Below, in pieces: positions 1 through 21,231 of a stretch of 44,108 bases of DNA. Numbering within the stretch: the first letter of the stretch is position 1; each line of letters opens with the position of its first letter. The DNA is from a virus. Lineage: Duplodnaviria > Heunggongvirae > Uroviricota > Caudoviricetes. The stretch lies in IMG/VR virus record IMGVR_UViG_2529292919_000018, one strand, 5' to 3'. A program made the position numbers and the translations under genes. Under the pieces are notes generated by a model. The model was not told the DNA's origin, made no database searches, and worked only from the letters and a program-made list of their open reading frames with translations.

Positions 1-1119
1 TCAAATAACCAACTTAACCCATTCCTGACCTCGAGTATCGTTATAGCGATCGGTGGTTGCCTGGACTTTATGTCCTAGTAATGTTTTTGTATCAATACCC
101 TGTGCACGGTACAGCCGTTCTGATAGAGAGCGTTGTTCATGAAATGTTGGCGGAGTTTTTCCTGCTGGTGGAATTATCCCAGCCAGATCCCGTGCTTTGG
201 CAAAGTAGTCGCTCAGGTTGTCTTTACTCATCGGCTTCGGTTGTTTCTGGTGCCGACTATGGATTAGATATGGACTTAATATTCTGTCTCGGCACCCATC
301 AATAACTTCTTTTAACGTTATCCCAATGGCATCACAGCGTAGTGTAAGCGGTAACGCCAGACGCATTCCGGTTTTTCCCTGGGTGATATGCAAGTGTTCG
401 TTCCACACATCTGAAAAACGCATGTGGCAAATGTCATCACGGCGCTGACCAGTAACAATCGCAAGAAGCATTGCGTTACGGATAAAGTGTTTTTCAGGCG
501 TTGCATTGTAAATTTTTTGCCAGTCTTCCATGGTGAGCCTGGCTCTGGTTACTTTAGGGATCGGTTTACGGGTAGCCTCCGGAGGATTCCATCCAGGAGG
601 AACTTCCCCTGCATGCTGTGCTTCTTTATAAATATCAACCCATAATCCACGATTTACTCTCGCTGTGCTGACCATGTCTTTATCCAGCCACTCATCCAGT
701 ATTAATGCAAAGTCTCTTACTTCCAGTTCTTTCAATGGGTGGTTTCCCAGACGGGAAACCAGGTATGCAGCCATTCGGGTTTTTTCTTTGTGAGTTGTAG
801 CTGCAATATCTCCATTTTTCAGTCGCGTGTCCTGTATTTTCAGATATCGATCAACCCATGCCTTTAATCTGATACCCCGACGTTTTGTTGCTGACGGACT
901 TTCATCAATTTTGCGCATGAAATATTCAGCTTCTGCTGCAGCTATTCGCTGATTGGCTGTGGAAGCGATTTTTTCTGCCTTACCTTTGTCTGTTCCGAGT
1001 CCGTGAAATTTTCCAGTCACAGGATTTTTATACTGGTAGTAAACTCTGCCAGTTCTGCGATCAAACTTTTCGTAAAGACCGGCTACGTCAGTGCTGTTTT
1101 TTCGTGGCCTCGGTGACAT
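1..1119 (-). CDS. int: Tyrosine-type site-specific integrase (lambda Int family)
   Basis: 372-aa ORF ending exactly at window start; C-terminal catalytic region with R...HxxR...Y pattern (TFHEQRSLSERLY, LLGHK, TTDRYNDTR); N-terminal arm-binding-like region; overlapped by xis-like gene. Confidence 0.9.
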   Translation of the reverse strand: MSPRPRKNSTDVAGLYEKFDRRTGRVYYQYKNPVTGKFHGLGTDKGKAEKIASTANQRIAAAEAEYFMRKIDESPSATKRRGIRLKAWVDRYLKIQDTRLKNGDIAATTHKEKTRMAAYLVSRLGNHPLKELEVRDFALILDEWLDKDMVSTARVNRGLWVDIYKEAQHAGEVPPGWNPPEATRKPIPKVTRARLTMEDWQKIYNATPEKHFIRNAMLLAIVTGQRRDDICHMRFSDVWNEHLHITQGKTGMRLALPLTLRCDAIGITLKEVIDGCRDRILSPYLIHSRHQKQPKPMSKDNLSDYFAKARDLAGIIPPAGKTPPTFHEQRSLSERLYRAQGIDTKTLLGHKVQATTDRYNDTRGQEWVKLVI

Positions 1120-1357
1120 GAGTTAAAATCTCCTTCAGTGCATCATCATCGCCAGTATGAATTTCCGGCGCAATTCCCGTTTCACCAGGCCCAACAAATA
1201 CTGCTCGGCGATCTATCAGCCAACGCCCACGAATTTTTTGTGGTCTTGGAACGATGTATCCTAGTTTTCCGTATTTCACCAGGGTAGTGTTTGTTATTGG
1301 GAGACTGAACCGTTTTGGTTTCCACTCGTCGAGCGTTATCAGGTACTGTTCGCTCAT
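1088..1357 (-). CDS. Putative excisionase / small DNA-binding protein
   Basis: 89-aa ORF from ATG at 1357 with GGAG RBS; 3' end overlaps the int start, the classic xis-int arrangement. No motif recognised; call is positional. Confidence 0.45.
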   Translation of the reverse strand: MSEQYLITLDEWKPKRFSLPITNTTLVKYGKLGYIVPRPQKIRGRWLIDRRAVFVGPGETGIAPEIHTGDDDALKEILTHVTEATKKQH

Positions 1358-1418
1358 GGCTATCACTCCGGAACGCGCCAGTTGCAGAATATCAACGACA
1401 ACTGGCGACGGTTGAACA

Positions 1419-3890
1419 TTAAAAATCAGCCTGATTCGGGATCAGTTTTTGCCAGATAGCTGAAACGTATTTTGCCTGGTGACGAGCGTCATCAAGTGCA
1501 TTATGGCGCTCACCTTCGAATGGAATAGCCGTTCTGGCATCGAAGTCTATGGCTTTCCCCAGCTCAACGATTGTGCGTACATCGCGATCGTTGTAGTAAC
1601 GCCACGGGCAGGGGATCCCCTGCCGTTCGTATGAACGGCGCAAAATCGTGTTGTCGAAGTTGGCTCCATTTCCCCAAACCTGAACAAAAAATTCACCGGA
1701 GTTTTCGTCGATAAATTCCCGCAATTGTAACAGTGCATCATCTAACGGGATTTCATCGGTCATAATGGCAGATTGCGCTTCGCGTGATTGCTTAAGCCAC
1801 CATTTAATGGTGTCCCGATCAATGACTCCGCCAGCAGTTTCCAGATCGATAGTCTTACTAAATTCCGGTCCCATATCTCCGGTTTGCGGATCGAAAAATA
1901 TTGCACCTATTGAGATGATCGGGGCATCAGGATTTTTTCCCATGGTTTCAAGGTCGATCATTAGATGGTCACACGTCCTGCTGGTGGATGTGATTTCGTG
2001 ATGACCGTTCACCTTAATTGAGTGATCTGCCGTCTCGCCAGTCTCATTATCGCTATTGTGATGCTGATTGCCGCCAGTGTTCTCCTTGTGTGGATGCTCA
2101 GCGCCTTCCATTTCCTCCGGATCATCTTCCTGAACTTCAACCTGATACTCTTCACCGAATGTTTCCTGGTATGTTGCGTCGCCCATCACCGCACCACAAT
2201 CAGGGCAGTTGCCGCCGCCGGTCTGACCGCAGGCGGTGCAGACTTTTTCCACTTCCTGTTGCACTACTGGTTCAGGTAGTTTCGTTTCTGGCTCGTTTTG
2301 TTGCGTATTTGGGCTGTTTTGTTCCGCTTTCTGGTCGTTCTGTTCCGTTTCTTGCTGGTTCTGGTTCACAGAATCGCGGGTTTCAATCCCCTTCACCCAT
2401 TTCGGATCATTCGGATCGCTAACCCCTGCAACAAATTCACCACGTGATACTGCAAGCAGTTCATCGGCGTCAGGCTGGCTGATATTGGCTGCCTGCATAA
2501 TTTTGTTTACTTCGTCAGCGGTAACTTTTACCGGCCCTGGTTGTGCGGTCGTGTCAGATGCACCAGTATTTTGTTGTGAACCTGAGTATGTACCGTTTTT
2601 GCGGGCGAAATATTCTTCTTTCGTGATTTCAGTAGCCCCTGTAGCCAGTGCCTTATCCAGACCAGAAAGTTTGTTTGCGCGACCGTATTTTTCGCTATCC
2701 TTGTCGGTGAAGAGGAAGTAGAACGGCCCTTCACGCTCTACAGATGGTTCGACTTCCACTTTGCATTCGGTTTTTTCGTTGTCCGGAATTGCCGTTTCCA
2801 CTGCATCAGTTTCTGGTACTGGCGACGAGAGAGTATCAGTTGCGCTCTGATTTCTTCCTTCATCTTCAAACACGCCCTTTGTAGTCAGGTATTCAGTAAT
2901 GTATTTGTTCAGTGCCACAGGGTCTTTGTGAATGTCGATCGGACGTTCACGGACAAGGCCAAAAATAGTCTGGCGGTCGTAGCGAAGGGCATCAGGCTGT
3001 TTGCGCATTGATGCCGAGATACGCTTCCAGTCTTCGCGGTCGTTGTCGATAACTTCTTTTTTTGCCCAGCGATGGATGCTGCCGTCAATGTTTCCGGCAT
3101 CCACATCACCAGGCCAGAGAGCGTAGGCCAGTTCGTCATCCAGTGTTTTCCATGTCTGCTTGTATTCGCGATGAGTGGCAGCAATGACCGGGCTGATTTT
3201 TCCTGTTGAATTTTCAGTGTTCTGTTGATTGGCTCTGGCGCGGGCGAGATCAACAACAGACGTGTATTTTCCGGTTTCCTTGCGTTCACCTTCGCGACGT
3301 TTTTTCCAGATGCGCATCTCTGCCTGAATTTCGGGCCATTTGGCACCAGGCTTACATTTATGCTTAACCCACCCGATGGCATGCAGCTTAAGCTCCGGAT
3401 ACATGGCGTTAACTTCTGGCATTTTCATCAACGCTTCAACGATATGTCCGTCGAATGTTGCCATGTCTTCCTGCAACAATTCCTGTGCGCTAATCACCAT
3501 ATCAACGGTGATGTTTTCACATGTGTCGAACTTAACCATGACAGCGTTCTGTACTTCAGGGGCCAGCTTGTCAAAAGTGACGTTCATCGGATCGGATTCA
3601 GTCTCAACCGGGACAAAAGAAGCAGAATCCTCATCCCAGCGGTTTTCCTGCATATATTCAGCATCCCATGAATCGAGGGCAGGGCGGGGTATGCCAGGTT
3701 TATCCTCGCAGACAATAAATTTATAAGCGCAGTCCTGAGCAGCCGGATAATGTTCCAGGAATTGCCAGTGAAATTTTGCTCGAGCACGGCGTTCGTCGCC
3801 AGCTTCAATGGCTGTGGCTACAGCCACAGCGCCTTCTTCCCTTGTTGCCAGTTCGTCAGGAATAGCGGCGCAAATAAAGACTTTACTCAT
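1419..3890 (-). CDS. Large multidomain protein with C-terminal DEDDh (DnaQ-like) 3'-5' exonuclease domain, zinc ribbon and acidic low-complexity linker (YdfE-like?)
   Basis: Start set to ATG at 3890 (MSKVF, GAGG RBS) rather than track start 3926. C-terminus has Exo I IDLETMG, Exo II WGNGANFD, Exo III HNALDDA. Central Q/E/T-rich segment and CTACGQTGGGNCPDCGA Cys4 ribbon. Confidence 0.75.
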   Translation of the reverse strand: MSKVFICAAIPDELATREEGAVAVATAIEAGDERRARAKFHWQFLEHYPAAQDCAYKFIVCEDKPGIPRPALDSWDAEYMQENRWDEDSASFVPVETESDPMNVTFDKLAPEVQNAVMVKFDTCENITVDMVISAQELLQEDMATFDGHIVEALMKMPEVNAMYPELKLHAIGWVKHKCKPGAKWPEIQAEMRIWKKRREGERKETGKYTSVVDLARARANQQNTENSTGKISPVIAATHREYKQTWKTLDDELAYALWPGDVDAGNIDGSIHRWAKKEVIDNDREDWKRISASMRKQPDALRYDRQTIFGLVRERPIDIHKDPVALNKYITEYLTTKGVFEDEGRNQSATDTLSSPVPETDAVETAIPDNEKTECKVEVEPSVEREGPFYFLFTDKDSEKYGRANKLSGLDKALATGATEITKEEYFARKNGTYSGSQQNTGASDTTAQPGPVKVTADEVNKIMQAANISQPDADELLAVSRGEFVAGVSDPNDPKWVKGIETRDSVNQNQQETEQNDQKAEQNSPNTQQNEPETKLPEPVVQQEVEKVCTACGQTGGGNCPDCGAVMGDATYQETFGEEYQVEVQEDDPEEMEGAEHPHKENTGGNQHHNSDNETGETADHSIKVNGHHEITSTSRTCDHLMIDLETMGKNPDAPIISIGAIFFDPQTGDMGPEFSKTIDLETAGGVIDRDTIKWWLKQSREAQSAIMTDEIPLDDALLQLREFIDENSGEFFVQVWGNGANFDNTILRRSYERQGIPCPWRYYNDRDVRTIVELGKAIDFDARTAIPFEGERHNALDDARHQAKYVSAIWQKLIPNQADF

Positions 3891-3982
3891 TTGTTTTAAC
3901 CTCATGACAGATTTAAGGATGAACAAATCCCTGCCATTGCTGGCATATAAGAATGAAACCGGATATTTATTACGGAACTGTT

Positions 3983-4174
3983 TTAAAGACCTGCCGGGAT
4001 TTCGATATTATCCTGGTGAATAACTTTATCGACCGGGTAACAGTTACCGGGAATTTTCTGTTCGGTTGCTGCAGTCATACACTACTGCATTGTCCTGTGA
4101 ACACTGACTGCAATATCAACTGGCTCTCCGGAAACAAGAAAAACTGTCAGAACAAGCACAAATGCTGAATTCAT
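3983..4174 (-). pseudogene. ydfD: ydfD-like small lysis-protein gene interrupted by in-frame amber codon (TAG on the minus strand at 4082-4084)
   Basis: ATG at 4174 overlaps dicB stop (ATGA). Frame reads MNSAFVLVLTVFLVSGEPVDIAVSVHRTMQ, then TAG, then 32 more sense codons (CMTAATEQKIPGNCYPVDKVIHQDNIEIPAGL) to TAA. Total 63 codons, matching my recollection of K-12 YdfD length. Confidence 0.45.
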
Positions 4175-4359
4175 TGTGCACATCCTTTTGGCATCAGACG
4201 TAAACGAGCCAGCATTGAAACAATGCATATTTTATTTAATAGCTCCCGTTCTTGTTTTCTCTTGTTAATGGCATCTTCAGTAAATACTGGGTTACTGATA
4301 GTGACACCAATTTCAAAACAACCTTCAGACGTATTAACGTTTGGTAATAACGTTTTCAT
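4171..4359 (-). CDS. dicB: Cell-division inhibitor DicB
   Basis: 62-aa frame MKTLLPNVNTSEGCFEIGVTISNPVFTEDAINKRKQERELLNKICIVSMLARLRLMPKGCAQ (internal Met of track ORF 4171..4464); matches recalled K-12 DicB; downstream of DicF on same strand. Confidence 0.8.
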   Translation of the reverse strand: MKTLLPNVNTSEGCFEIGVTISNPVFTEDAINKRKQERELLNKICIVSMLARLRLMPKGCAQ

Positions 4360-4528
4360 TATCGCGTCCTCAACAATGAATTTTGTGATGCAGTGCCTGG
4401 TGCCTCCAGGTGACGTTAACCAGTTAACAATTAACGCCGGATACAGAGAATCCACCCATAACACTGTTTTTGGTTTTAACTGTTCCGCGTGCGCTCAGCC
4501 GCATTCACCACATCACAAAATTCACTTT

Positions 4529-4586
4529 AAAAAGGGCGGCAGAGCAGTCACGGAGTAAAACTGATACCGCCAAACGTCACCAGAAA
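4529..4586 (-). ncRNA. dicF: DicF small regulatory RNA (ftsZ-targeting) with intrinsic terminator
   Basis: Minus strand reads TTTCTGGTGACGTTTGGCGGTATCAGTTTTACTCCGTGACTGCTCTGCCGCCCTTTTT: GC stem (GGCGG...CTGCCGCC) plus U-run, matching my memory of DicF; sits between ydfC-like gene and dicB. Ends +/- a few nt. Confidence 0.75.
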
Positions 4587-4927
4587 ATTGATAACAGAGG
4601 GCGTTGCAGCGGGGTTGTCACTTAAGCGTATGGTCAACCTGACAACCCGGTGTCCTCAACGGGGGAAGGAATAACCCCGCCATACTTACCGCCGCGCCAT
4701 TTCGCGGATTGCCACAACCGGAAGCGCACGGTCGACGAAAATTTAACGACAGGCTATCTATGAACCAGCTACCTCGCCGTGCGCTTTCGCGTTATGGTCT
4801 GACTTTTCAGGGAAATATCCTTTCAGTAAACTGTCAGTGCCGGATGCTCACCCGTGTCCGGCGCACGCACTCCACCTCATCCGTGGAGAACTCCTTAATT
4901 ACCAACCTTAGCTTCGTTGGTTAGCTA

Positions 4928-5146
4928 TTAACGCGGGTATGTAATCATTCTGGCAATGCTTAATGTCGCTGCTTTTTCCAGATTAGTGATATCCTGCTCC
5001 AGAGCGGACAGATTTTCAGCCTGCTTAGCCCTGGCTTCATTGGTCCATTTCAGATCCTGCGCTGCATTAATTTTCTGGCGCATCCACTCATAAAGTTCAT
5101 CATCGGTATAGTCTGGCGCGATGATGACGGGTTCTCGTTTCTGCAT
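4928..5146 (-). CDS. ydfC: YdfC-like small protein (dicB operon)
   Basis: 72-aa ORF, ATG at 5146 with GAGGA RBS; size and position match ydfC of the Qin dicB operon (recollection). Confidence 0.55.
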   Translation of the reverse strand: MQKREPVIIAPDYTDDELYEWMRQKINAAQDLKWTNEARAKQAENLSALEQDITNLEKAATLSIARMITYPR

Positions 5147-5175
5147 ACTGATTCCTCGCGGTGCTGTTTCGCTTA

Positions 5176-5304
5176 TCAGCCGTTAGATTTTGCCGAACTG
5201 GAAAGTGCCTGTTTAAATTCGCTGAAGCTGAGAGCTTCTTCGCCTTCGGCAAGACCTTCGAAGTATTCTTCGTAAGCCTTTTCCATGATTGTGTCGAAAT
5301 CCAT
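5176..5304 (-). CDS. ydfB: YdfB-like small acidic protein (42 aa)
   Basis: Not in the >=60-aa track. Minus-strand ATG at 5304 after AGGTGGGTGA RBS gives MDFDTIMEKAYEEYFEGLAEGEEALSFSEFKQALSSSAKSNG, stop at 5176-5178. Confidence 0.5.
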   Translation of the reverse strand: MDFDTIMEKAYEEYFEGLAEGEEALSFSEFKQALSSSAKSNG

Positions 5305-5305
5305 A

Positions 5306-5461
5306 TCACCCACCTGAATTTCTTTCCAGCCAGCGACGCGCTCCAGATTCGGTTTTAAACGTTTTGCTTTTGGTATACGTCATCGCGGTGAACGTACCGT
5401 CCTGGTTGGGGAACACGCCACATACCAGAGATTCGCTGTTGCCAAGATCGATAGTATCCAT
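5306..5461 (-). CDS. ydfA: YdfA-like small protein (51 aa)
   Basis: Internal Met of track ORF 5306..5554: MDTIDLGNSESLVCGVFPNQDGTFTAMTYTKSKTFKTESGARRWLERNSGG; first gene of the leftward operon below the repressor. Confidence 0.45.
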   Translation of the reverse strand: MDTIDLGNSESLVCGVFPNQDGTFTAMTYTKSKTFKTESGARRWLERNSGG

Positions 5462-5652
5462 GTTGACCTCATTTCCCCTTAACGCCGGGGTAGCGGAACT
5501 GTTTGCTGAGAACACCGTGCGGTGTCTTGATGGATCGTAATTTAGTTTTCTCATGAATATTGATCAAGTGCTTTTGATGATAAAACTCAATATTTAATGC
5601 AAAATAAAGCCAATACATTGAAATGTAAGGCTTTAAAATTTGTGAAGGGGGG

Positions 5653-6060
5653 TTATTGATGTTTGTTACGTTTGCGAGCTTCTAGTAGCTCGGTGAATAG
5701 GCGATTAAAATTCTCAACGCGGGCACGGAGTTCGCTGATTTGTGCTTGCTGCTCTGATTTTGGAAGTGCGCGATACAATCGCAACATCTCCAACTCATCT
5801 TCCGATAAGTCTAAGGCGCTGTTGAGTGCAACTGGTGGATCTGGTGTTTTATCCTCGTCACCAAACAGTATCCAAGTTGGTGAACATTGCAATACCTCAG
5901 CCAGGCGATGCAAATTTTGCCCGCGCGGGGCTGTATGGTCGCTTTCCCATAGTGAAATTGATGAGCCAGATACGCCAGCAGCTTTGCTTAAATCGTTTTG
6001 ACTTAAACCAACCTGTTTGCGTCTTTCTCTAATTCGTTGACCTAAAGTTTTCTCGTTCAT
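5653..6060 (-). CDS. dicA: XRE/cI-type HTH repressor (DicA-like immunity repressor)
   Basis: 135 aa; N-terminal HTH (GQRIRERRKQVGLSQNDLSKAAGVSGSSISLWE) and LQCSPTWILFGDEDK segment recalled from DicA; divergent from a Cro-like gene. Confidence 0.85.
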   Translation of the reverse strand: MNEKTLGQRIRERRKQVGLSQNDLSKAAGVSGSSISLWESDHTAPRGQNLHRLAEVLQCSPTWILFGDEDKTPDPPVALNSALDLSEDELEMLRLYRALPKSEQQAQISELRARVENFNRLFTELLEARKRNKHQ

Positions 6061-6137
6061 ATTTAGATATCTTAATAATCCTTGACTTGAGATTCCTTGA
6101 GTGATTACTATTGAGAAAACTCAACTTTGGAGGGGTG
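6061..6137. promoter_or_regulatory. Divergent promoter/operator region between dicA-like and dicC-like genes
   Basis: 77-bp AT-rich spacer with repeated TTGA(C/G) half-site-like motifs (CTTGACTTGAGATTCCTTGAGTGATTACTATTGAG); GGAGGGG RBS for the rightward gene. Confidence 0.4.
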
Positions 6138-6365
6138 ATGTTTAAATCAGACGTAATTAATTTTTATGGGACGAAAGCCAAAGTAGCGAAAGCTGCTGGT
6201 GTTGATCCATCTGCTGTTTCTCAATGGGGGGAACTGGTTCCTGAAGGTCGCGCGATGCGCCTGCAAGAGGCATCCGGCGGGGAACTTCAGTACGACCCCA
6301 AAGTTTATGACGAATATCGTAAGGCAAAGCGGGCGGGGCGGTTGAACAATGAAAATCACCCCTGA
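6138..6365 (+). CDS. dicC: Cro-like small regulator (DicC-like)
   Basis: Track ORF starts at TTG 6111; ATG at 6138 follows GGAGGGG RBS, giving 75 aa (MFKSDVINFYGTKAKVAKAAGVDPSAVSQWG...); divergent from repressor. Confidence 0.7.
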   Translation: MFKSDVINFYGTKAKVAKAAGVDPSAVSQWGELVPEGRAMRLQEASGGELQYDPKVYDEYRKAKRAGRLNNENHP

Positions 6366-6900
6366 ACAGGTTTGTGAGGCTCTGGATGCCTGGGTATGCC
6401 GACCAGGAATGACACAGGAGCAGGCGACGATATTAATCACGGAAGCATTCTGGGCTCTGAAAGAACGCCCGAACATCGATGTTCAACGCGTCACGTTTAA
6501 TGATGGCGAGGTTGATCAACGGGCGCTGTGCGTTAACCGGGTGAAGATATTCGAACGCTGGAAAGCTATCGACACCAGGGATAAGCGGAAAAAATTCACG
6601 GCGCTGATTCCGGCAATTATGGAGGCTATCCGAATTAGTGATTTCAGGCTGTATCGTGAGATCAGTGATGGAAAAAGCATTACGTACATGATCGCCGGAT
6701 TAAACAAAGAATATGGCGATGTGGTGGAGTCCGGGCTGCTTTTTGCGGATCCATCTGTTGTGGAACGTGAGACTGACGAGCTTATAGAAAAAGCTATTGC
6801 TTTCAAGCATGCGTATCGTCAGCAATATCAATATTACTTTGCAGATAAACAAATGTCTGCCAGGGGTTCGTATGAGTATCGATGCACTACGATGGGCTAA
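6349..6900 (+). CDS. YdaT-like protein (CII-like position; YdaT toxin-domain family?)
   Basis: 183 aa directly after cro-like gene (start overlaps its end); segment DKRKKFTALIPAIMEAI resembles the KxxKLIPAIL core I recall from Rac YdaT. Assignment tentative. Confidence 0.45.
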   Translation: MKITPEQVCEALDAWVCRPGMTQEQATILITEAFWALKERPNIDVQRVTFNDGEVDQRALCVNRVKIFERWKAIDTRDKRKKFTALIPAIMEAIRISDFRLYREISDGKSITYMIAGLNKEYGDVVESGLLFADPSVVERETDELIEKAIAFKHAYRQQYQYYFADKQMSARGSYEYRCTTMG

Positions 6901-7912
6901 AAAGGTGAAAACCGGCAGTTCATCCAGTAAGTCTGTATTGACCTGGCTTGCTGATATGTGCGGTGCCGATTTGTGTGCATACCCGTCTGTATCTGCACTG
7001 GCAGAAGTAACGGAACTGAACAAAAAGACTGTGCAGGACAGCTTACGACACCTGATGGAGATTGGGTTAATTGTTGATACCGGTGAGAGAAAAGGCAGAA
7101 CAAAGCAAATTGTGGTGTACCGACTTATCGGTGTAGAAGAAAGTGTTGCCGAGCCTGAATACACCCAAAAACGGGAGTCTTTAAAGGTGGGTAAAATCGG
7201 TGCTGTTAATAAAAACAGTACCGAAAATGGTTATGTTTCAGCACAAAACAGACCCAAAAACGGAACTCTTAGCTGCATGGAAAATAACCAAAGACACCCA
7301 AATTTTCCATCAAAGACACCCAAAAACGGATCACGGAACCCAAAGGAACCCAAAGAGCTAAACCCCACACATAACGCACGCGAGAGTGCTCCGACCAGTG
7401 AGCAGAAAGTTTTGTCGTTACAGGCTGCACCTCCTGTATTCCTGGATGGCCTGAGCGAACCCATCGAAAAATTTCCGATGACCGATAGCTGGTATCCGTC
7501 ACGGGATTTTCGACGACGGGCTGCGTTGTGGGGGATGGCTTTGCCGGAGACAGAATTCACACCTGCTGAACTTGCCGCCTTCCGGGGCTACTGGGCTGCT
7601 GAGGGGAAAGTGTTTACGCAGATTCAGTGGGAGCAGAAATTCGCCCGTCACGTAAATCACGTCAGGGCGCAGGTTAAACCAGTCAGCAAGGGGGTAAACC
7701 ATGCAGCAGCACCAGGTGACACCGCATCACGGGCAGTTCAGGAAATTCGGGCAGCACGTGAGCAGTGGGAACGTGAAAACGGATTTATCAGCGACGGAAA
7801 CGGCCTGGAAGCTGTGGGAACTCATGGGGGAGGTTTATTCGAACCGCTGGACCCAGAAGAACGGGGCCGCACCTTCGAAGCTCTGGATTGCACAGATTGG
7901 TGCGATGACTGA
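6872..7912 (+). CDS. Replication initiator (O-like, N-terminal winged-helix DNA-binding domain)
   Basis: ATG at 6872 (MSIDALRWAKKVKTG...); wHTH-like N-terminus; position before a P-like gene. 3' end overlaps the P frame, so the true C-terminus is uncertain. Confidence 0.6.
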   Translation: MSIDALRWAKKVKTGSSSSKSVLTWLADMCGADLCAYPSVSALAEVTELNKKTVQDSLRHLMEIGLIVDTGERKGRTKQIVVYRLIGVEESVAEPEYTQKRESLKVGKIGAVNKNSTENGYVSAQNRPKNGTLSCMENNQRHPNFPSKTPKNGSRNPKEPKELNPTHNARESAPTSEQKVLSLQAAPPVFLDGLSEPIEKFPMTDSWYPSRDFRRRAALWGMALPETEFTPAELAAFRGYWAAEGKVFTQIQWEQKFARHVNHVRAQVKPVSKGVNHAAAPGDTASRAVQEIRAAREQWERENGFISDGNGLEAVGTHGGGLFEPLDPEERGRTFEALDCTDWCDD

Positions 7913-8366
7913 GCAGAAAATCCGACAGGTCTGCCGCCAGTGCATGGACCGCTGCCGGGCGGGTGAAACATGGCCTCCGGACCTGGCTGAGTTTGTGGCG
8001 CTGATTTCTGAAAGCGGAGCCAATCCATTCGGTCTGACGGTGGATGCCGTGATGGAGGAGTACCGTCGCTGGCGCAACGAGTCCTGGCGATACGACGGGA
8101 GCGATAAATACCCGTGGTCTCAGCCTGTGCTGTATCACATTTGCCTCGAGATGCGTTCAAAGGGGATTGAGCGGCAGATGACCGAAGGGGAGTTAAAACG
8201 GCTTGCAGAACGGCAGCTGACGAAATGGGCAAAGCATGTTAGTAACGGCCTGAGTGTTCCGCCAGTCCGGCGACAACTGGCGGCACCCAAACGCCCGTCG
8301 GGGCCAACGCCAATTGAGTTGCTGAAACAGGAATATGAACGCCGGAAAGCGGCTGGGCTTGTCTGA
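7701..8366 (+). CDS. Replication protein P-like (helicase loader)
   Basis: Alignable by eye to lambda P: TMEQ..R, PxxxxFVA, YPW, TxxELxR, AxxELxHMTxRIN-like spacing. Strong SD AAGGGGG before ATG 7701; alternative starts 7827 or 7905. Confidence 0.7.
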   Translation: MQQHQVTPHHGQFRKFGQHVSSGNVKTDLSATETAWKLWELMGEVYSNRWTQKNGAAPSKLWIAQIGAMTEQKIRQVCRQCMDRCRAGETWPPDLAEFVALISESGANPFGLTVDAVMEEYRRWRNESWRYDGSDKYPWSQPVLYHICLEMRSKGIERQMTEGELKRLAERQLTKWAKHVSNGLSVPPVRRQLAAPKRPSGPTPIELLKQEYERRKAAGLV

Positions 8367-8398
8367 GTTGAGAAGTAATTTTTACCGGGAGGAAATTT

Positions 8399-16805: not shown

Positions 16806-17294
16806 ATGATATATCCGGAAATTACAGGCAAAAGCGGCGAGCATTTACGTCTAAAAACGCTGGAAGCCGTCTGGATCCAGGGGAAATTACGGATGTGGGG
16901 GCGTTGGTCGTATATAGGTGGTGGCAAACCAGGAAATATGTTCAATCAGTTGCTGGCATCCAAAAAACTGACAAAAACCGCGGTCAATGAAGCCCTGCGT
17001 AGAATCAGGGAGTCAGGGATTGATAAACCAGAGCTGGAAGCATTCTTGCGAGAGATGATCGCTGGCAGACAGAAGAGCTGGTTGTCTCACTGTACTGATG
17101 CAGAGGCGTTACGCATTGATGGGGTGATAAGTAAAGCGCTTGCACGTTATCCTGGATTGATTGATATCCTGCGGCAAAGGTACGAAGGGCGGGGGATGAG
17201 TAAACGCAAAATGGCTGAATTGTTGAATGAGGTTCACCCTGAGTGGTGCTATGCAATGCCGCAATCGTATAGATATGTGGCTGAGAATAGCTGA
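16806..17294 (+). CDS. Putative late-gene antiterminator (Q-like) by position
   Basis: ATG 16806 (GTG 16794 overlaps rusA stop); located between rusA and a terminator/late region. No zinc-finger seen, so family uncertain. Confidence 0.4.
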   Translation: MIYPEITGKSGEHLRLKTLEAVWIQGKLRMWGRWSYIGGGKPGNMFNQLLASKKLTKTAVNEALRRIRESGIDKPELEAFLREMIAGRQKSWLSHCTDAEALRIDGVISKALARYPGLIDILRQRYEGRGMSKRKMAELLNEVHPEWCYAMPQSYRYVAENS

Positions 17295-17510
17295 GTTTAT
17301 TCTGTATCCACTGATGCGAGATGCATTTTCTTTTACTGACGCTTAGAATCTGGAGGGCGTTTGTTGTTGCACGAAGAGGATTTTTGGCTGGTAGTAAGGT
17401 TTGTGCAGTTTTAGAAAAAAAGCTTGTATTTTTAGCCATAAACTGTTTCAATCCAGCTACGCTTCGCAAAGCTGTACCGCGAGGCGAATAGCAGACATGG
17501 ACACCTGAAA

Positions 17511-17536
17511 GAACCCGCTTTATGCGGGTTTTTTTA
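17511..17536 (+). terminator. Rho-independent terminator (tR'-like) downstream of Q-like gene
   Basis: ACCCGC-TTTAT-GCGGGT hairpin followed by TTTTTTT. Confidence 0.6.
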
Positions 17537-17658
17537 TGCCTGAAAAACGGCACAGAACATTAAACGCGCTGGTAGTTGTGAATACTGGTCTTTCAGCTTG
17601 CTGGCTTTTTCGACAAGAGGTATTGGTATGTCACGTTAACCGGAAAAGGGAAAAAAGC

Positions 17659-17856
17659 ATGCTAAAACAGCAGGATATGACCGAAACCGCCAGAGTGGTG
17701 TTTAATGAATTAAGCGTCACCGAACCGGCGACCGTCGGGGAAATTGCGCAGAATACTTACCTTTCACGCGAACGCTGCCAGTTAATACTGACTCAGCTTG
17801 TTATGGCGGGTCTGGCAGATTATCAGTTCGGTTGTTACAGACGCCTTCCTCAGTGA
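17659..17856 (+). CDS. Hypothetical small protein (65 aa)
   Basis: ATG 17659 downstream of terminator; MLKQQDMTETARVVFNELSVTEPATVGEIAQ...; no family recognised. Confidence 0.4.
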   Translation: MLKQQDMTETARVVFNELSVTEPATVGEIAQNTYLSRERCQLILTQLVMAGLADYQFGCYRRLPQ

Positions 17857-18006
17857 AGGCTTTTTAATTTGTGGTAATGGGCGGCTGGTGGGTGTTAGCG
17901 GTACCTGCCAGCCATCTGCTCATGCGTTGGGGTCACAAGCAAACCTCAGGCCCATCTGCTTTGCGCAAAAGCGGTATGAGCCTATCAGAGAAGTGCTTAT
18001 TGATCT

Positions 18007-19056
18007 ATGATTAATACTGTAAAAATATCCAGTTGTGAGTTAATCAACGCTGATTGTCTGGAATTTATCCAGACCTTACCGGAAAATTCTGTCGATCTGA
18101 TAGTCACAGACCCGCCATACTTTAAAGTGAAGCCCGAGGGCTGGGATAACCAGTGGAAGGGCGACGATGATTACCTGAAATGGCTGGACCAGTGTCTGGC
18201 GCAGTTCTGGCGGGTACTGAAGCCTGCCGGAAGTCTTTACCTGTTCTGTGGTCATCGCCTGGCATCTGACACCGAAATCATGATGCGTGAGCGCTTTAAT
18301 GTGCTGAACCACATTATCTGGGCGAAGCCGTCCGGACGCTGGAACGGGTGCAATAAGGAAAGTCTGCGGGCGTATTTTCCGGCAACAGAGCGCATTCTGT
18401 TTGCAGAACATTATCAGGGACCGTATCGCCCGAAAGATGATGGCTATGTGGTACAGGGGCGCGGGCTAAAACAGCACGTCATGGCCCCGCTGATTTCTTA
18501 CTTTCGTGATGCGCGTAAATCACTGGGAATAACGTCAAAACAGATAGCGGAAGCCACCGGAAAGAAAAACATGGCTTCGCACTGGTTTGGTACCAGTCAG
18601 TGGCAGTTACCGAACGAGGGTGATTACAACAAATTGCAGGCGTTGTTTGCGCGTGTTGCGGCAGAAAAACATCAGCGCGGGGAACTGGAAAAGCCACACC
18701 ACCAGCTGGTCAGCACATACAGTGAGCTGAACCGGCAGTATACGGAACTGCTGAGTGAATATAAAAATTTGCGGCGGTATTTCGGTGTGACGGCGCAGGT
18801 TCCGTACACCGATGTCTGGACGCATAAACCGGTGCAGTACTATCCAGGGAAACATCCGTGCGAAAAACCGGCAGAAATGCTGCAGCAGATAATCAACGCG
18901 AGCAGTCGTCCGGGAGACCTGGTTGCAGATTTTTTTATGGGTTCAGGTTCAACGGTAAAAGCGGCGATGGCACTGGGGCGTCGTGCGATTGGTGTTGAGC
19001 TGGAGACCGGACGTTTTGAACAGACAGTCAGGGAAGTTCAGGATTTAATCGTTTGA
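18007..19056 (+). CDS. DNA methyltransferase (N6-adenine/N4-cytosine, beta-class; orphan)
   Basis: Motif IV DLIVTDPPYF near N-terminus and AdoMet motif I FFMGSGSTVKAA near C-terminus; no adjacent restriction endonuclease gene. Confidence 0.85.
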   Translation: MINTVKISSCELINADCLEFIQTLPENSVDLIVTDPPYFKVKPEGWDNQWKGDDDYLKWLDQCLAQFWRVLKPAGSLYLFCGHRLASDTEIMMRERFNVLNHIIWAKPSGRWNGCNKESLRAYFPATERILFAEHYQGPYRPKDDGYVVQGRGLKQHVMAPLISYFRDARKSLGITSKQIAEATGKKNMASHWFGTSQWQLPNEGDYNKLQALFARVAAEKHQRGELEKPHHQLVSTYSELNRQYTELLSEYKNLRRYFGVTAQVPYTDVWTHKPVQYYPGKHPCEKPAEMLQQIINASSRPGDLVADFFMGSGSTVKAAMALGRRAIGVELETGRFEQTVREVQDLIV

Positions 19057-19105
19057 AACGGATGAGATTGCAGAATTAATTACGCACCATTATTATTCTG
19101 CTCCC

Positions 19106-19181
19106 GGCCCTTTAGCTCAGTGGTGAGAGCGAGCGACTCATAATCGCCAGGTCGCTGGTTCAAATCCAGCAAGGGCCACCA
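19106..19181 (+). tRNA. tRNA with CAU anticodon (Met or lysidine-type Ile2; ileZ-like)
   Basis: Acceptor stem GGCCCTT/AAGGGCC, D-arm TAGCTCAGTGGT-AGAGC, anticodon loop CTCATAA, T-arm GGTTCAAATCC, 3' CCA. Coordinates +/- 2. Confidence 0.8.
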
Positions 19182-19188
19182 TCACATA

Positions 19189-19265
19189 CCGCCATTAGCT
19201 CATCAGGATAGAGCGCCAGCCTTCGAAGCTGGTTGCGCGGGGTTCGAGTCCTCGATGGCGGTCCA
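19189..19265 (+). tRNA. tRNA-Arg (anticodon UCG; argN-like)
   Basis: Acceptor CCGCCAT/ATGGCGG, anticodon stem GCCAGC/GCTGGT with loop CTTCGAA, T-loop TTCGAGT, 3' CCA. Confidence 0.8.
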
Positions 19266-19278
19266 TTATCTGTACCCT

Positions 19279-19355
19279 GCGTTGTTAGCTCAGCCGGACA
19301 GAGCAATTGCCTTCTAAGCAATCGGTCACTGGTTCGAATCCAGTACAACGCGCCA
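19279..19355 (+). tRNA. tRNA-Arg (anticodon UCU; argO-like)
   Basis: Acceptor GCGTTGT/ACAACGC, anticodon stem ATTGC/GCAAT with loop CTTCTAA, T-arm GGTTCGAATCC, 3' CCA. Confidence 0.8.
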
Positions 19356-19958: not shown

Positions 19959-20193
19959 AAAGTGCGCGCCTTGTGCTGGCTGTCATCCTGTTGTTTCTGG
20001 TAGTGGTGGTTGATTTCACCGGACGACTGATGTCAGTGCTGACAGATGGTGTGCTGGTGGCGATGGTGCTGGTCGTGCTCCGGCCTTTACTGCGTAAATC
20101 TGAATAACATCACACAAAAGGCATCTGCGGATGCCTTTGACGGGGTGTTTTTTACGGGTCGCTGGTGGCCCTTTTTTATTTTCAGGAGGAAGT

Positions 20194-20586
20194 ATGTCTG
20201 AACCCTTATCCGGTTCCGGCACGGCTGCGGCGCTGGGGGGCGCGACGGTATTCGGGCTGTTTACCGGGATGGATTTCGGGATTGTGTTTGGCGCGTTCGC
20301 CGGGGCGTTATTTGTGGCAACAATGCCACAGTCACTTTCAGTCTGGCGCGTAGTGGCACATTTTCTGGTGTCGTTTATTGTCGGCGTGCTGGGAGCGCGT
20401 GTGCTGTCAGCCTGGATTGCATCAAAAACAGGGTATGACGCTACATCAGCAGATGCGCTTTGCGCGGTGCTGGTCTCGGTGGTGTCGGTGAAGATTCTCT
20501 CGTTCATCCACCAGCAGGATATTGCATCGCTGGTGTCCGGTGTGTTCTCCCGCCTGCGGGGTGGAGGAGGCGGCAATGTTAAGTAA
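20194..20586 (+). CDS. Membrane protein, putative holin
   Basis: ATG 20194 after GGAGGAAG; Gly/Ala-rich hydrophobic helices; directly upstream of endolysin. Confidence 0.5.
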   Translation: MSEPLSGSGTAAALGGATVFGLFTGMDFGIVFGAFAGALFVATMPQSLSVWRVVAHFLVSFIVGVLGARVLSAWIASKTGYDATSADALCAVLVSVVSVKILSFIHQQDIASLVSGVFSRLRGGGGGNVK

Positions 20587-20851
20587 CCTTCCCGGATTGC
20601 TGAATGTGGCGTTATGCACGGTTATCGTGCTGACGCTCTTTTTTTATCGTCGCCGTGATTCCAGACATAAACCGCTGGTGTCATGGCTGGCCTGGCTGCT
20701 GATGCTGCTGTATGCCTTTGCGCCCCTCAGCTATCTGTGTGGTCGCCCGTTAGCAACGGGCTGGCTGGAAGTGTTTTTTAATCTGCTGTTCTGCGTGCTG
20801 GTGATACGCGCACGCGGGAACGTCACAAAAATCTTTCCATTGTTGAGGTGA
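20576..20851 (+). CDS. Small membrane protein (holin/antiholin-like)
   Basis: ATG 20576 after GGAGGAGG; two hydrophobic helices; overlaps neighbours on both sides. Confidence 0.45.
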   Translation: MLSNLPGLLNVALCTVIVLTLFFYRRRDSRHKPLVSWLAWLLMLLYAFAPLSYLCGRPLATGWLEVFFNLLFCVLVIRARGNVTKIFPLLR

Positions 20852-21231
20852 ATATGCCGGGTAAATTCAGATTCAGCCGTCGCAGTGAAAAAAATCTGGA
20901 GGGTGTCAAACCACAGCTGGTTGCTGTAGTTCGCCGTGCGCTGGAGCTGACGGAGGTTGATTTCGGTATTACGGAAGGCCTGCGCAGTAAGTATCGCCAG
21001 AAACAGCTGGTTGCGGAAGGGAAAAGCCAGACCATGAACAGCCGCCACCTGACCGGTGATGCGGTGGATGTTGTGGCCTACATTGGCAGTCAGGTGTCAT
21101 GGGAGTGGCCTCTGTACGAGAAAATCGCACAGGCATTTAAGCAGGCTGCCGCAGAGCTGGGGATCGCTATCGAATGGGGCGGGGACTGGAAAACGCTGAA
21201 AGACGGACCTCACTTTCAGCTGAAGCGATAA
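20848..21231 (+). CDS. Endolysin, peptidase M15 (L-alanyl-D-glutamate peptidase type)
   Basis: 127 aa; SRHLTGDAVDV ... GGDWKTLKDGPHFQL zinc-peptidase-like H/D/H pattern typical of small M15 endolysins; position after holin-like genes. Confidence 0.75.
   Translation: MNMPGKFRFSRRSEKNLEGVKPQLVAVVRRALELTEVDFGITEGLRSKYRQKQLVAEGKSQTMNSRHLTGDAVDVVAYIGSQVSWEWPLYEKIAQAFKQAAAELGIAIEWGGDWKTLKDGPHFQLKR

Follow-up and report, generated by a model that had tools for sequence, protein, structure and literature searches.

YdfD, a small protein of the Qin prophage of E. coli K-12, is lytic when expressed; it binds IspG, and lysis is relieved by overproducing IspG or by supplying HMBPP (PMC8835842). Published dissection assigns it two domains, N-terminal (residues 1-28) and C-terminal (residues 29-63), and its killing activity is sensitive to small changes at both ends: cells survive induction when one, two or five residues are deleted from either terminus, or when Leu63 is replaced by alanine (L63A; section 2.4 of PMC8835842). 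YdfD deltaC35, which retains only residues 1-28, bound IspG in pull-downs but did not lyse cells, and binding by the N-terminal fragment was much weaker than by full-length YdfD (PMC8835842). In the part of that paper that cites earlier work, the C-terminal domain by itself is credited with much reduced killing. Intact YdfD has been likened to phiX174 E, Qbeta A2 and LysM, single-gene lysis proteins that act on the synthesis of cell-envelope precursors, as a small protein that blocks a biosynthetic enzyme (here IspG) and brings about lysis that depends on cell division (PMC8835842). Those three are the sole lysis genes of small phages, whereas the ydfD described here is an accessory gene of an early operon, in what appears to be a disabled copy. 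In K-12, the early-left operon ydfABC-dicF-dicB-ydfD is transcribed together and repressed by DicA (PMC10448788).

Here we describe a ydfD locus in IMG/VR record IMGVR_UViG_2529292919_000018, a 44,108-nucleotide stretch of Caudoviricetes DNA (hereafter the window), in which the ydfD frame is interrupted by an amber codon. We consider it highly probable (roughly 90%) that this is a loss-of-function nonsense allele of a prophage accessory gene.

The ydfD locus and its operon

The locus lies on the minus strand, within an early-left operon whose relevant features, together with the lysis cassette of the same prophage, are as follows:

4534-4585, minus strand: DicF small RNA, upstream in the same operon (Rfam RF00039, full length, 76.7 bits against a gathering score of 48)
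4171-4359, minus strand: dicB, cell-division inhibitor, intact, its stop overlapping the ydfD start as ATGA (Pfam PF05358, RefSeq)
3983-4174, minus strand: ydfD (DUF1482) frame with one amber codon, pseudogene (translation, Pfam PF07358, K-12 comparison, PGAP)
1419-3890, minus strand: 823-aa exonuclease, intact, downstream gene of the early-left operon (PHROG 2082, full length; RefSeq in E2348/69)
20131-21231, plus strand: the canonical lysis cassette of the prophage, two holin-family genes and an endolysin (PHROG 198 and 217, holin; PHROG 465, endolysin)

Gene order along the minus strand is repressor, ydfA, ydfB, ydfC, DicF, dicB, ydfD, exonuclease, excisionase and integrase. The 62-codon dicB frame matches PF05358 over 62 of 62 positions (136.8 bits), its TGA is overlapped by the ydfD ATG (4174-4172), and RefSeq annotates an identical locus as dicB; the exonuclease begins 92 nt past the ydfD TAA. 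ydfD thus occupies the position typical of the DUF1482 family, directly 3' of dicB in a lambdoid early-left operon. Since the prophage has its own holin/endolysin cassette, ydfD is best regarded as an accessory gene and not as the main lysis system. A tblastn search for a second ydfD copy in the window returned the known locus only, and a scan for terminators and promoters around ydfD gave none above shuffled expectation.

The closest described counterpart is ydfD of K-12 Qin (lysis protein YdfD, WP_001083297.1), which has the same position after dicB, the same ATGA overlap, the same operon (ydfABC-dicF-dicB-ydfD-exonuclease) and 191 of 192 identical bases. The two loci differ in that codon 31 is GAG in Qin and TAG here, and in that the Qin exonuclease is cut by IS2, whereas the exonuclease in the window is intact and late genes are retained.

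A single amber codon replaces Glu31

Within the ydfD frame, the following elements can be distinguished:

4183-4187, minus strand: Shine-Dalgarno-like AAGGA, 8 nt 5' of the ydfD ATG and within the 3' end of dicB (sequence reading)
4085-4174, minus strand: 30 codons that remain translatable from the ydfD start, MNSAFVLVLTVFLVSGEPVDIAVSVHRTMQ (translation)
4082-4084, minus strand: amber TAG in place of GAG (Glu31), by G-to-T transversion of position 4084 (aligned with K-12 MC1061 and FORC 064)
3983-4078, minus strand: residual 31-codon ORF from Met33 (ATG 4078-4076), the conserved C-terminal half of YdfD (ORF list, DUF1482)

Translation of positions 3983-4174 gives MNSAFVLVLTVFLVSGEPVDIAVSVHRTMQ, a stop, CMTAATEQKIPGNCYPVDKVIHQDNIEIPAGL and a second stop: from ATG 4174 the frame runs through 30 sense codons to TAG (4084-4082), and then through 32 further sense codons to TAA (3985-3983). 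The earlier note, made from the DNA alone, had given these coordinates and the ATGA overlap with dicB, all of which are confirmed here. With the amber position counted as sense, the frame has 63 positions, the length of the 63-aa YdfD of K-12, in agreement with the size that the note gives for this Qin lysis protein; the frame is ydfD. The AAGGA motif is a putative ribosome-binding site for it.

Over a 571-bp stretch that spans dicB and ydfD, the window shares every base with E. coli FORC 064 (100% identity) and is 99.8% identical (one base apart) to K-12 derivatives. The one base that separates the window from K-12 ydfD falls in codon 31 and changes GAG (Glu31) to TAG, so that the stop stands in place of a sense codon, as the note had proposed, and is the sole difference in the 571 bp. 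In FORC 064 (NZ_CP022664.1, 1974762-1993376), the TAG allele is present twice, at sites separated by about 18.4 kb, and each copy is accompanied by an exonuclease, a repressor and an integrase of its own; either the prophage has been duplicated in tandem or the assembly is at fault.

The interrupted frame belongs to the DUF1482 family

The stop-repaired translation matches Pfam DUF1482 (PF07358) at 91.1 bits, where the cut-off is 25; on its own, the 31-residue segment past the stop scores 40.2 bits over profile positions 30-57, the C-terminal half of the family. Because both the repaired protein and the post-stop segment match, the arrangement is not a chance pattern of ORFs. Full-length DUF1482 homologues have an uninterrupted ORF of 63-67 codons, which the window lacks owing to the TAG at codon 31.

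When 17 full-length homologues, 70-92% identical to K-12 YdfD, were aligned, Glu31, Cys32 and Cys45 proved invariant and residues 31-62 the most conserved part of the family. The 30-residue product would contain none of the three invariant residues: Glu31 has become the stop, and both cysteines lie downstream of it. Two findings could have undone the earlier reading, namely homologues that end at the same point or a downstream segment of 32 codons that shows no conservation. Neither was obtained, as none of the 17 homologues (family members are 63-67 aa long) terminates near position 31 and the downstream half is the part most strongly conserved. With a stop that is premature when judged against intact, conserved homologues, and with the remaining frame still recognisable, the locus is a nonsense pseudogene. 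The suggestion that ydfD carries a nonsense mutation is accordingly supported by the K-12 GAG, by the invariance of Glu31, by the conserved codons downstream and by the PGAP annotation of an internal stop.

The amber allele is real but rare

We searched complete E. coli records for an exact 61-mer centred on the TAG and for its GAG version. The TAG 61-mer was found in 25 records and the GAG 61-mer in 1868, so that TAG makes up about 1.3% of exact matches. The carriers come from unrelated projects and from human, cow, dog, pig, chicken, giant panda, fish, seawater, cucumber and rabbit-farm sources. In an exact-sequence look-up of a larger protein collection, 80 contigs had a call for the 31-aa Met33 ORF, 13 for the 30-aa N-terminal product and at least 1000 for the intact 63-aa protein. 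PGAP annotation was read for 12 TAG-carrying records (E2348/69, FORC 064 and ten others), and each of them has ydfD labelled 'pseudo, internal stop'; at least one further ydfD-like copy is present in 20 of the 25 carrier records. We did not find the TAG allele in isolated phages, for which the phage collection has eight records covering ydfD; the three closest isolated phages with the same operon (PhiR42_1, Tritos and HannyBb) carry an intact 192-nt ydfD.

These counts bear directly on the possibility, raised in the earlier note, that the stop is a sequencing or assembly error in the source of the window. One-base length differences from E2348/69 in two T-runs (14071 and 17528) are possible homopolymer errors and suggest that the assembly is perhaps imperfect, but the ydfD change is a substitution and not a homopolymer indel. 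Moreover, the identical allele recurs in 25 complete records whose projects, hosts and countries are unrelated, and the exact 31-aa downstream ORF is called on 80 public contigs. Because of these recurrences, error is refuted as a general explanation, and we give it a negligible probability for the window itself. The TAG allele is real but rare and, being already flagged in public annotation (RefSeq/PGAP), already known.

Relation to the E2348/69 prophage and mosaic structure of the window

The nearest relative of the surrounding prophage is the one next to potC in E2348/69 (E. coli O127:H6), which has the same backbone and the same amber allele; its ydfD pseudogene, E2348C_RS28290, is annotated 'lysis protein YdfD, pseudo, internal stop'. 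This prophage is 99.7% identical to window positions 1-19355, with 47 substitutions and three indels. Unlike E2348/69, the window past about 19.4 kb has a different late region with tail sheath-type genes, which is known from other strains.

The window is therefore a mosaic, with a left 19.4 kb that resembles E2348/69 and a right 24.7 kb (terminase, portal, tail sheath, tape measure) that does not. The right part matches other strains, for example JNE25-005, E200139 and AST19, at 99.2-99.6% identity over 94% of its length, and no complete E. coli genome in the collection carried both halves together. Relative to E2348/69, the window has one base fewer at 14071 in a T-run of an IS481-family transposase, the ORF of which is shortened to 270 aa (13244-14056), two bases fewer at 17255 within a DUF1133 gene, and one base fewer at 17528 in a T-run; these length differences may reflect genuine frameshifts or else assembly errors in homopolymers. 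Three tRNA genes (CAT, annotated as tRNA-Ile in E2348/69; Arg-TCG; Arg-TCT) occupy 19106-19355, exactly at the end of E2348/69 similarity. The region of the middle tRNA (19205-19277) is densely substituted relative to E2348/69, in which only two tRNAs are annotated there. The ORF that leaves the window at its right end (42825-44108) was read over 427 codons and matches PHROG 2034, a family of unknown function. 'ydfJ: MHS family MFS transporter' is among the features that the best-matching genome lists across the whole 24.9-kb match to the late region. The end of the window may thus be host DNA at the K-12 site of Qin, though the integrase end matches the potC-side prophage of E2348/69.

Predicted loss of lysis

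The 30-codon product of the amber allele corresponds roughly to the deltaC35 fragment of YdfD (residues 1-28). Because lysis requires full-length YdfD and C-terminal deletions abolish killing (PMC8835842), the allele is predicted to be non-lytic, which these published truncation data make the most likely outcome. The alternative offered in the earlier note, a strain-specific truncation that leaves a functional membrane peptide, finds no support in the same data, given that the N-terminal fragment binds IspG in vitro and is inactive in cells (PMC8835842). The note had also described the first 30 codons as encoding a hydrophobic helix. A hydrophobic run is indeed present, though of only about 11-12 residues (A4-V14), and the helix is doubtful, as a moderate-confidence AlphaFold2 model makes this segment beta-strand.

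That model was built from an alignment of 17 sequences and was the best of five (mean pLDDT 75), the other four scoring much lower. With moderate confidence, it places strands at residues 5-12 and 18-26, a helix at 29-38 and a strand at 44-47, and on this model the stop would remove the only helix of YdfD together with its last strand. The hydrophobic N-terminus (residues 1-30) is modelled as a beta-hairpin and not as a transmembrane helix, which sits awkwardly with descriptions of YdfD as membrane-anchored.

Could the two halves together, or either singly, keep partial toxicity as a split gene, with translation re-initiating at Met33 to give an IspG-binding N-terminal peptide and a C-terminal one? 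The arrangement lends itself to such a reading: the in-frame Met33 ATG (4078) lies two codons past the TAG, with 3 nt between them, and opens an intact 31-codon ORF that matches DUF1482, while no carrier read has any other mutation in either half. The published N-terminal domain binds IspG, and the earlier work cited in PMC8835842 leaves some killing, though reduced, to the C-terminal domain alone. Expression of the Met33 ORF is nevertheless doubtful because its sole Shine-Dalgarno-like motif, AGGA, lies 14 nt upstream, which is not a useful spacing. Loss of a single terminal residue already abolishes plate killing (PMC8835842), and the AlphaFold2 model (best of five, moderate confidence) is broken by the stop at the start of its only helix, within one small fold and not between domains. 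As for the lack of further mutations, the general invariance of the region accounts for it. We therefore regard a split but active gene as quite improbable. Slighter still is the chance that the 30-residue fragment serves as a non-inhibiting IspG decoy, shielding the cell from full-length YdfD of other ydfD-bearing prophages in the same genome, or as one piece of a two-piece toxin completed by re-initiation at Met33. The N-terminal domain does bind IspG in vitro (PMC8835842), and further ydfD-like copies occur in the 20 carrier records noted above; against this, binding by the fragment is reported to be much weaker than by the full-length protein (PMC8835842), and the idea has no positive support.

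A further rival is programmed read-through or amber recoding that yields full-length YdfD, and its one point of support is the in-frame continuation of the ORF. The tRNA scan of the window returned only the anticodons CAT, TCG and TCT, in the near-identical prophage of E2348/69 the adjacent genes are annotated as intact with the standard code, and TAG at codon 31 is a minority allele (25 versus 1868 records) seen in 0 of 17 homologues. Such a programme is accordingly extremely improbable, and, as the window has no CUA-anticodon tRNA, an amber suppressor or recoding system was rejected as a candidate. Some natural read-through of UAG at a low level may nonetheless occur.

Taken together, these data favour loss of function, which may be pictured as follows. 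One G-to-T transversion has turned the invariant Glu31 codon into amber, and ribosomes starting at ATG 4174 would, whenever the operon is transcribed, release a 30-residue fragment in which both conserved cysteines and the conserved C-terminal half are missing. This copy of ydfD would then no longer lyse the cell, as lysis through inhibition of IspG needs the full-length protein (PMC8835842). The neighbouring dicF, dicB and exonuclease are intact and probably unaffected, and lysis at the end of the phage cycle would proceed through the separate holin/endolysin cassette. The amber allele itself is a heritable, low-frequency polymorphism carried by mosaic lambdoid prophages.

Origin and possible selection

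To place the allele in its genomic setting, we compared the flanks of 13 TAG loci and five GAG loci, reading codon 31 in 17 loci. Apart from the amber codon, ydfD matches the K-12 allele exactly in the window and in all 13 TAG loci compared, with no second disabling mutation; because the surrounding kilobase is nearly invariant among all K-12-type alleles, the absence of such a mutation is uninformative. The immunity regions beside the TAG allele are of at least five kinds among the carrier loci read, and the integrase modules of at least three. Both TAG and GAG occur on each of the two downstream haplotypes (window 3480-3700), a four-gamete pattern that is compatible with recurrent mutation and also with one origin and later recombination of the kind usual among lambdoid prophages.

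The allele might have spread as an adaptive detoxification, in which the host-killing gene was lost under selection while dicF, dicB and the rest of the operon were kept for host use. Expression of YdfD causes lysis (PMC8835842), all carrier loci retain an intact dicB and the window an intact dicF, and association with so many immunity regions and integrase modules implies that the allele has persisted through recombination. The allele is rare, however (25 exact TAG records versus 1868 exact GAG records), and intact ydfD has been kept both in the cryptic Qin of K-12 and in ECO2947. DicA-type repressors silence the operon, so that toxicity would rarely be expressed (PMC10448788), and most carrier records (20 of 25) hold further ydfD-like copies. 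On balance, we consider adaptive detoxification unlikely, though less so than the alternatives considered above.

ECO2947 (NZ_CP046259.1, 770015-770206) matches a 3-kb query from the window at 99.5%, about as closely as do the TAG carriers, yet it has GAG and an intact YdfD; its GAG could be either the ancestral state or that of a revertant or recombinant.

Implications

The interrupted frame is a nonsense pseudogene of an ordinary kind, derived from a prophage toxin gene that is already known: a single copy of this small gene, disabled in a minority lineage of lambdoid prophages that includes a prophage of the reference EPEC strain E2348/69. The finding is of use for annotation, and the allele could serve as a natural negative control in studies of lysis by YdfD and IspG. 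It also adds a minor data point on the decay of toxic accessory genes beside a dicF and dicB that stay intact.
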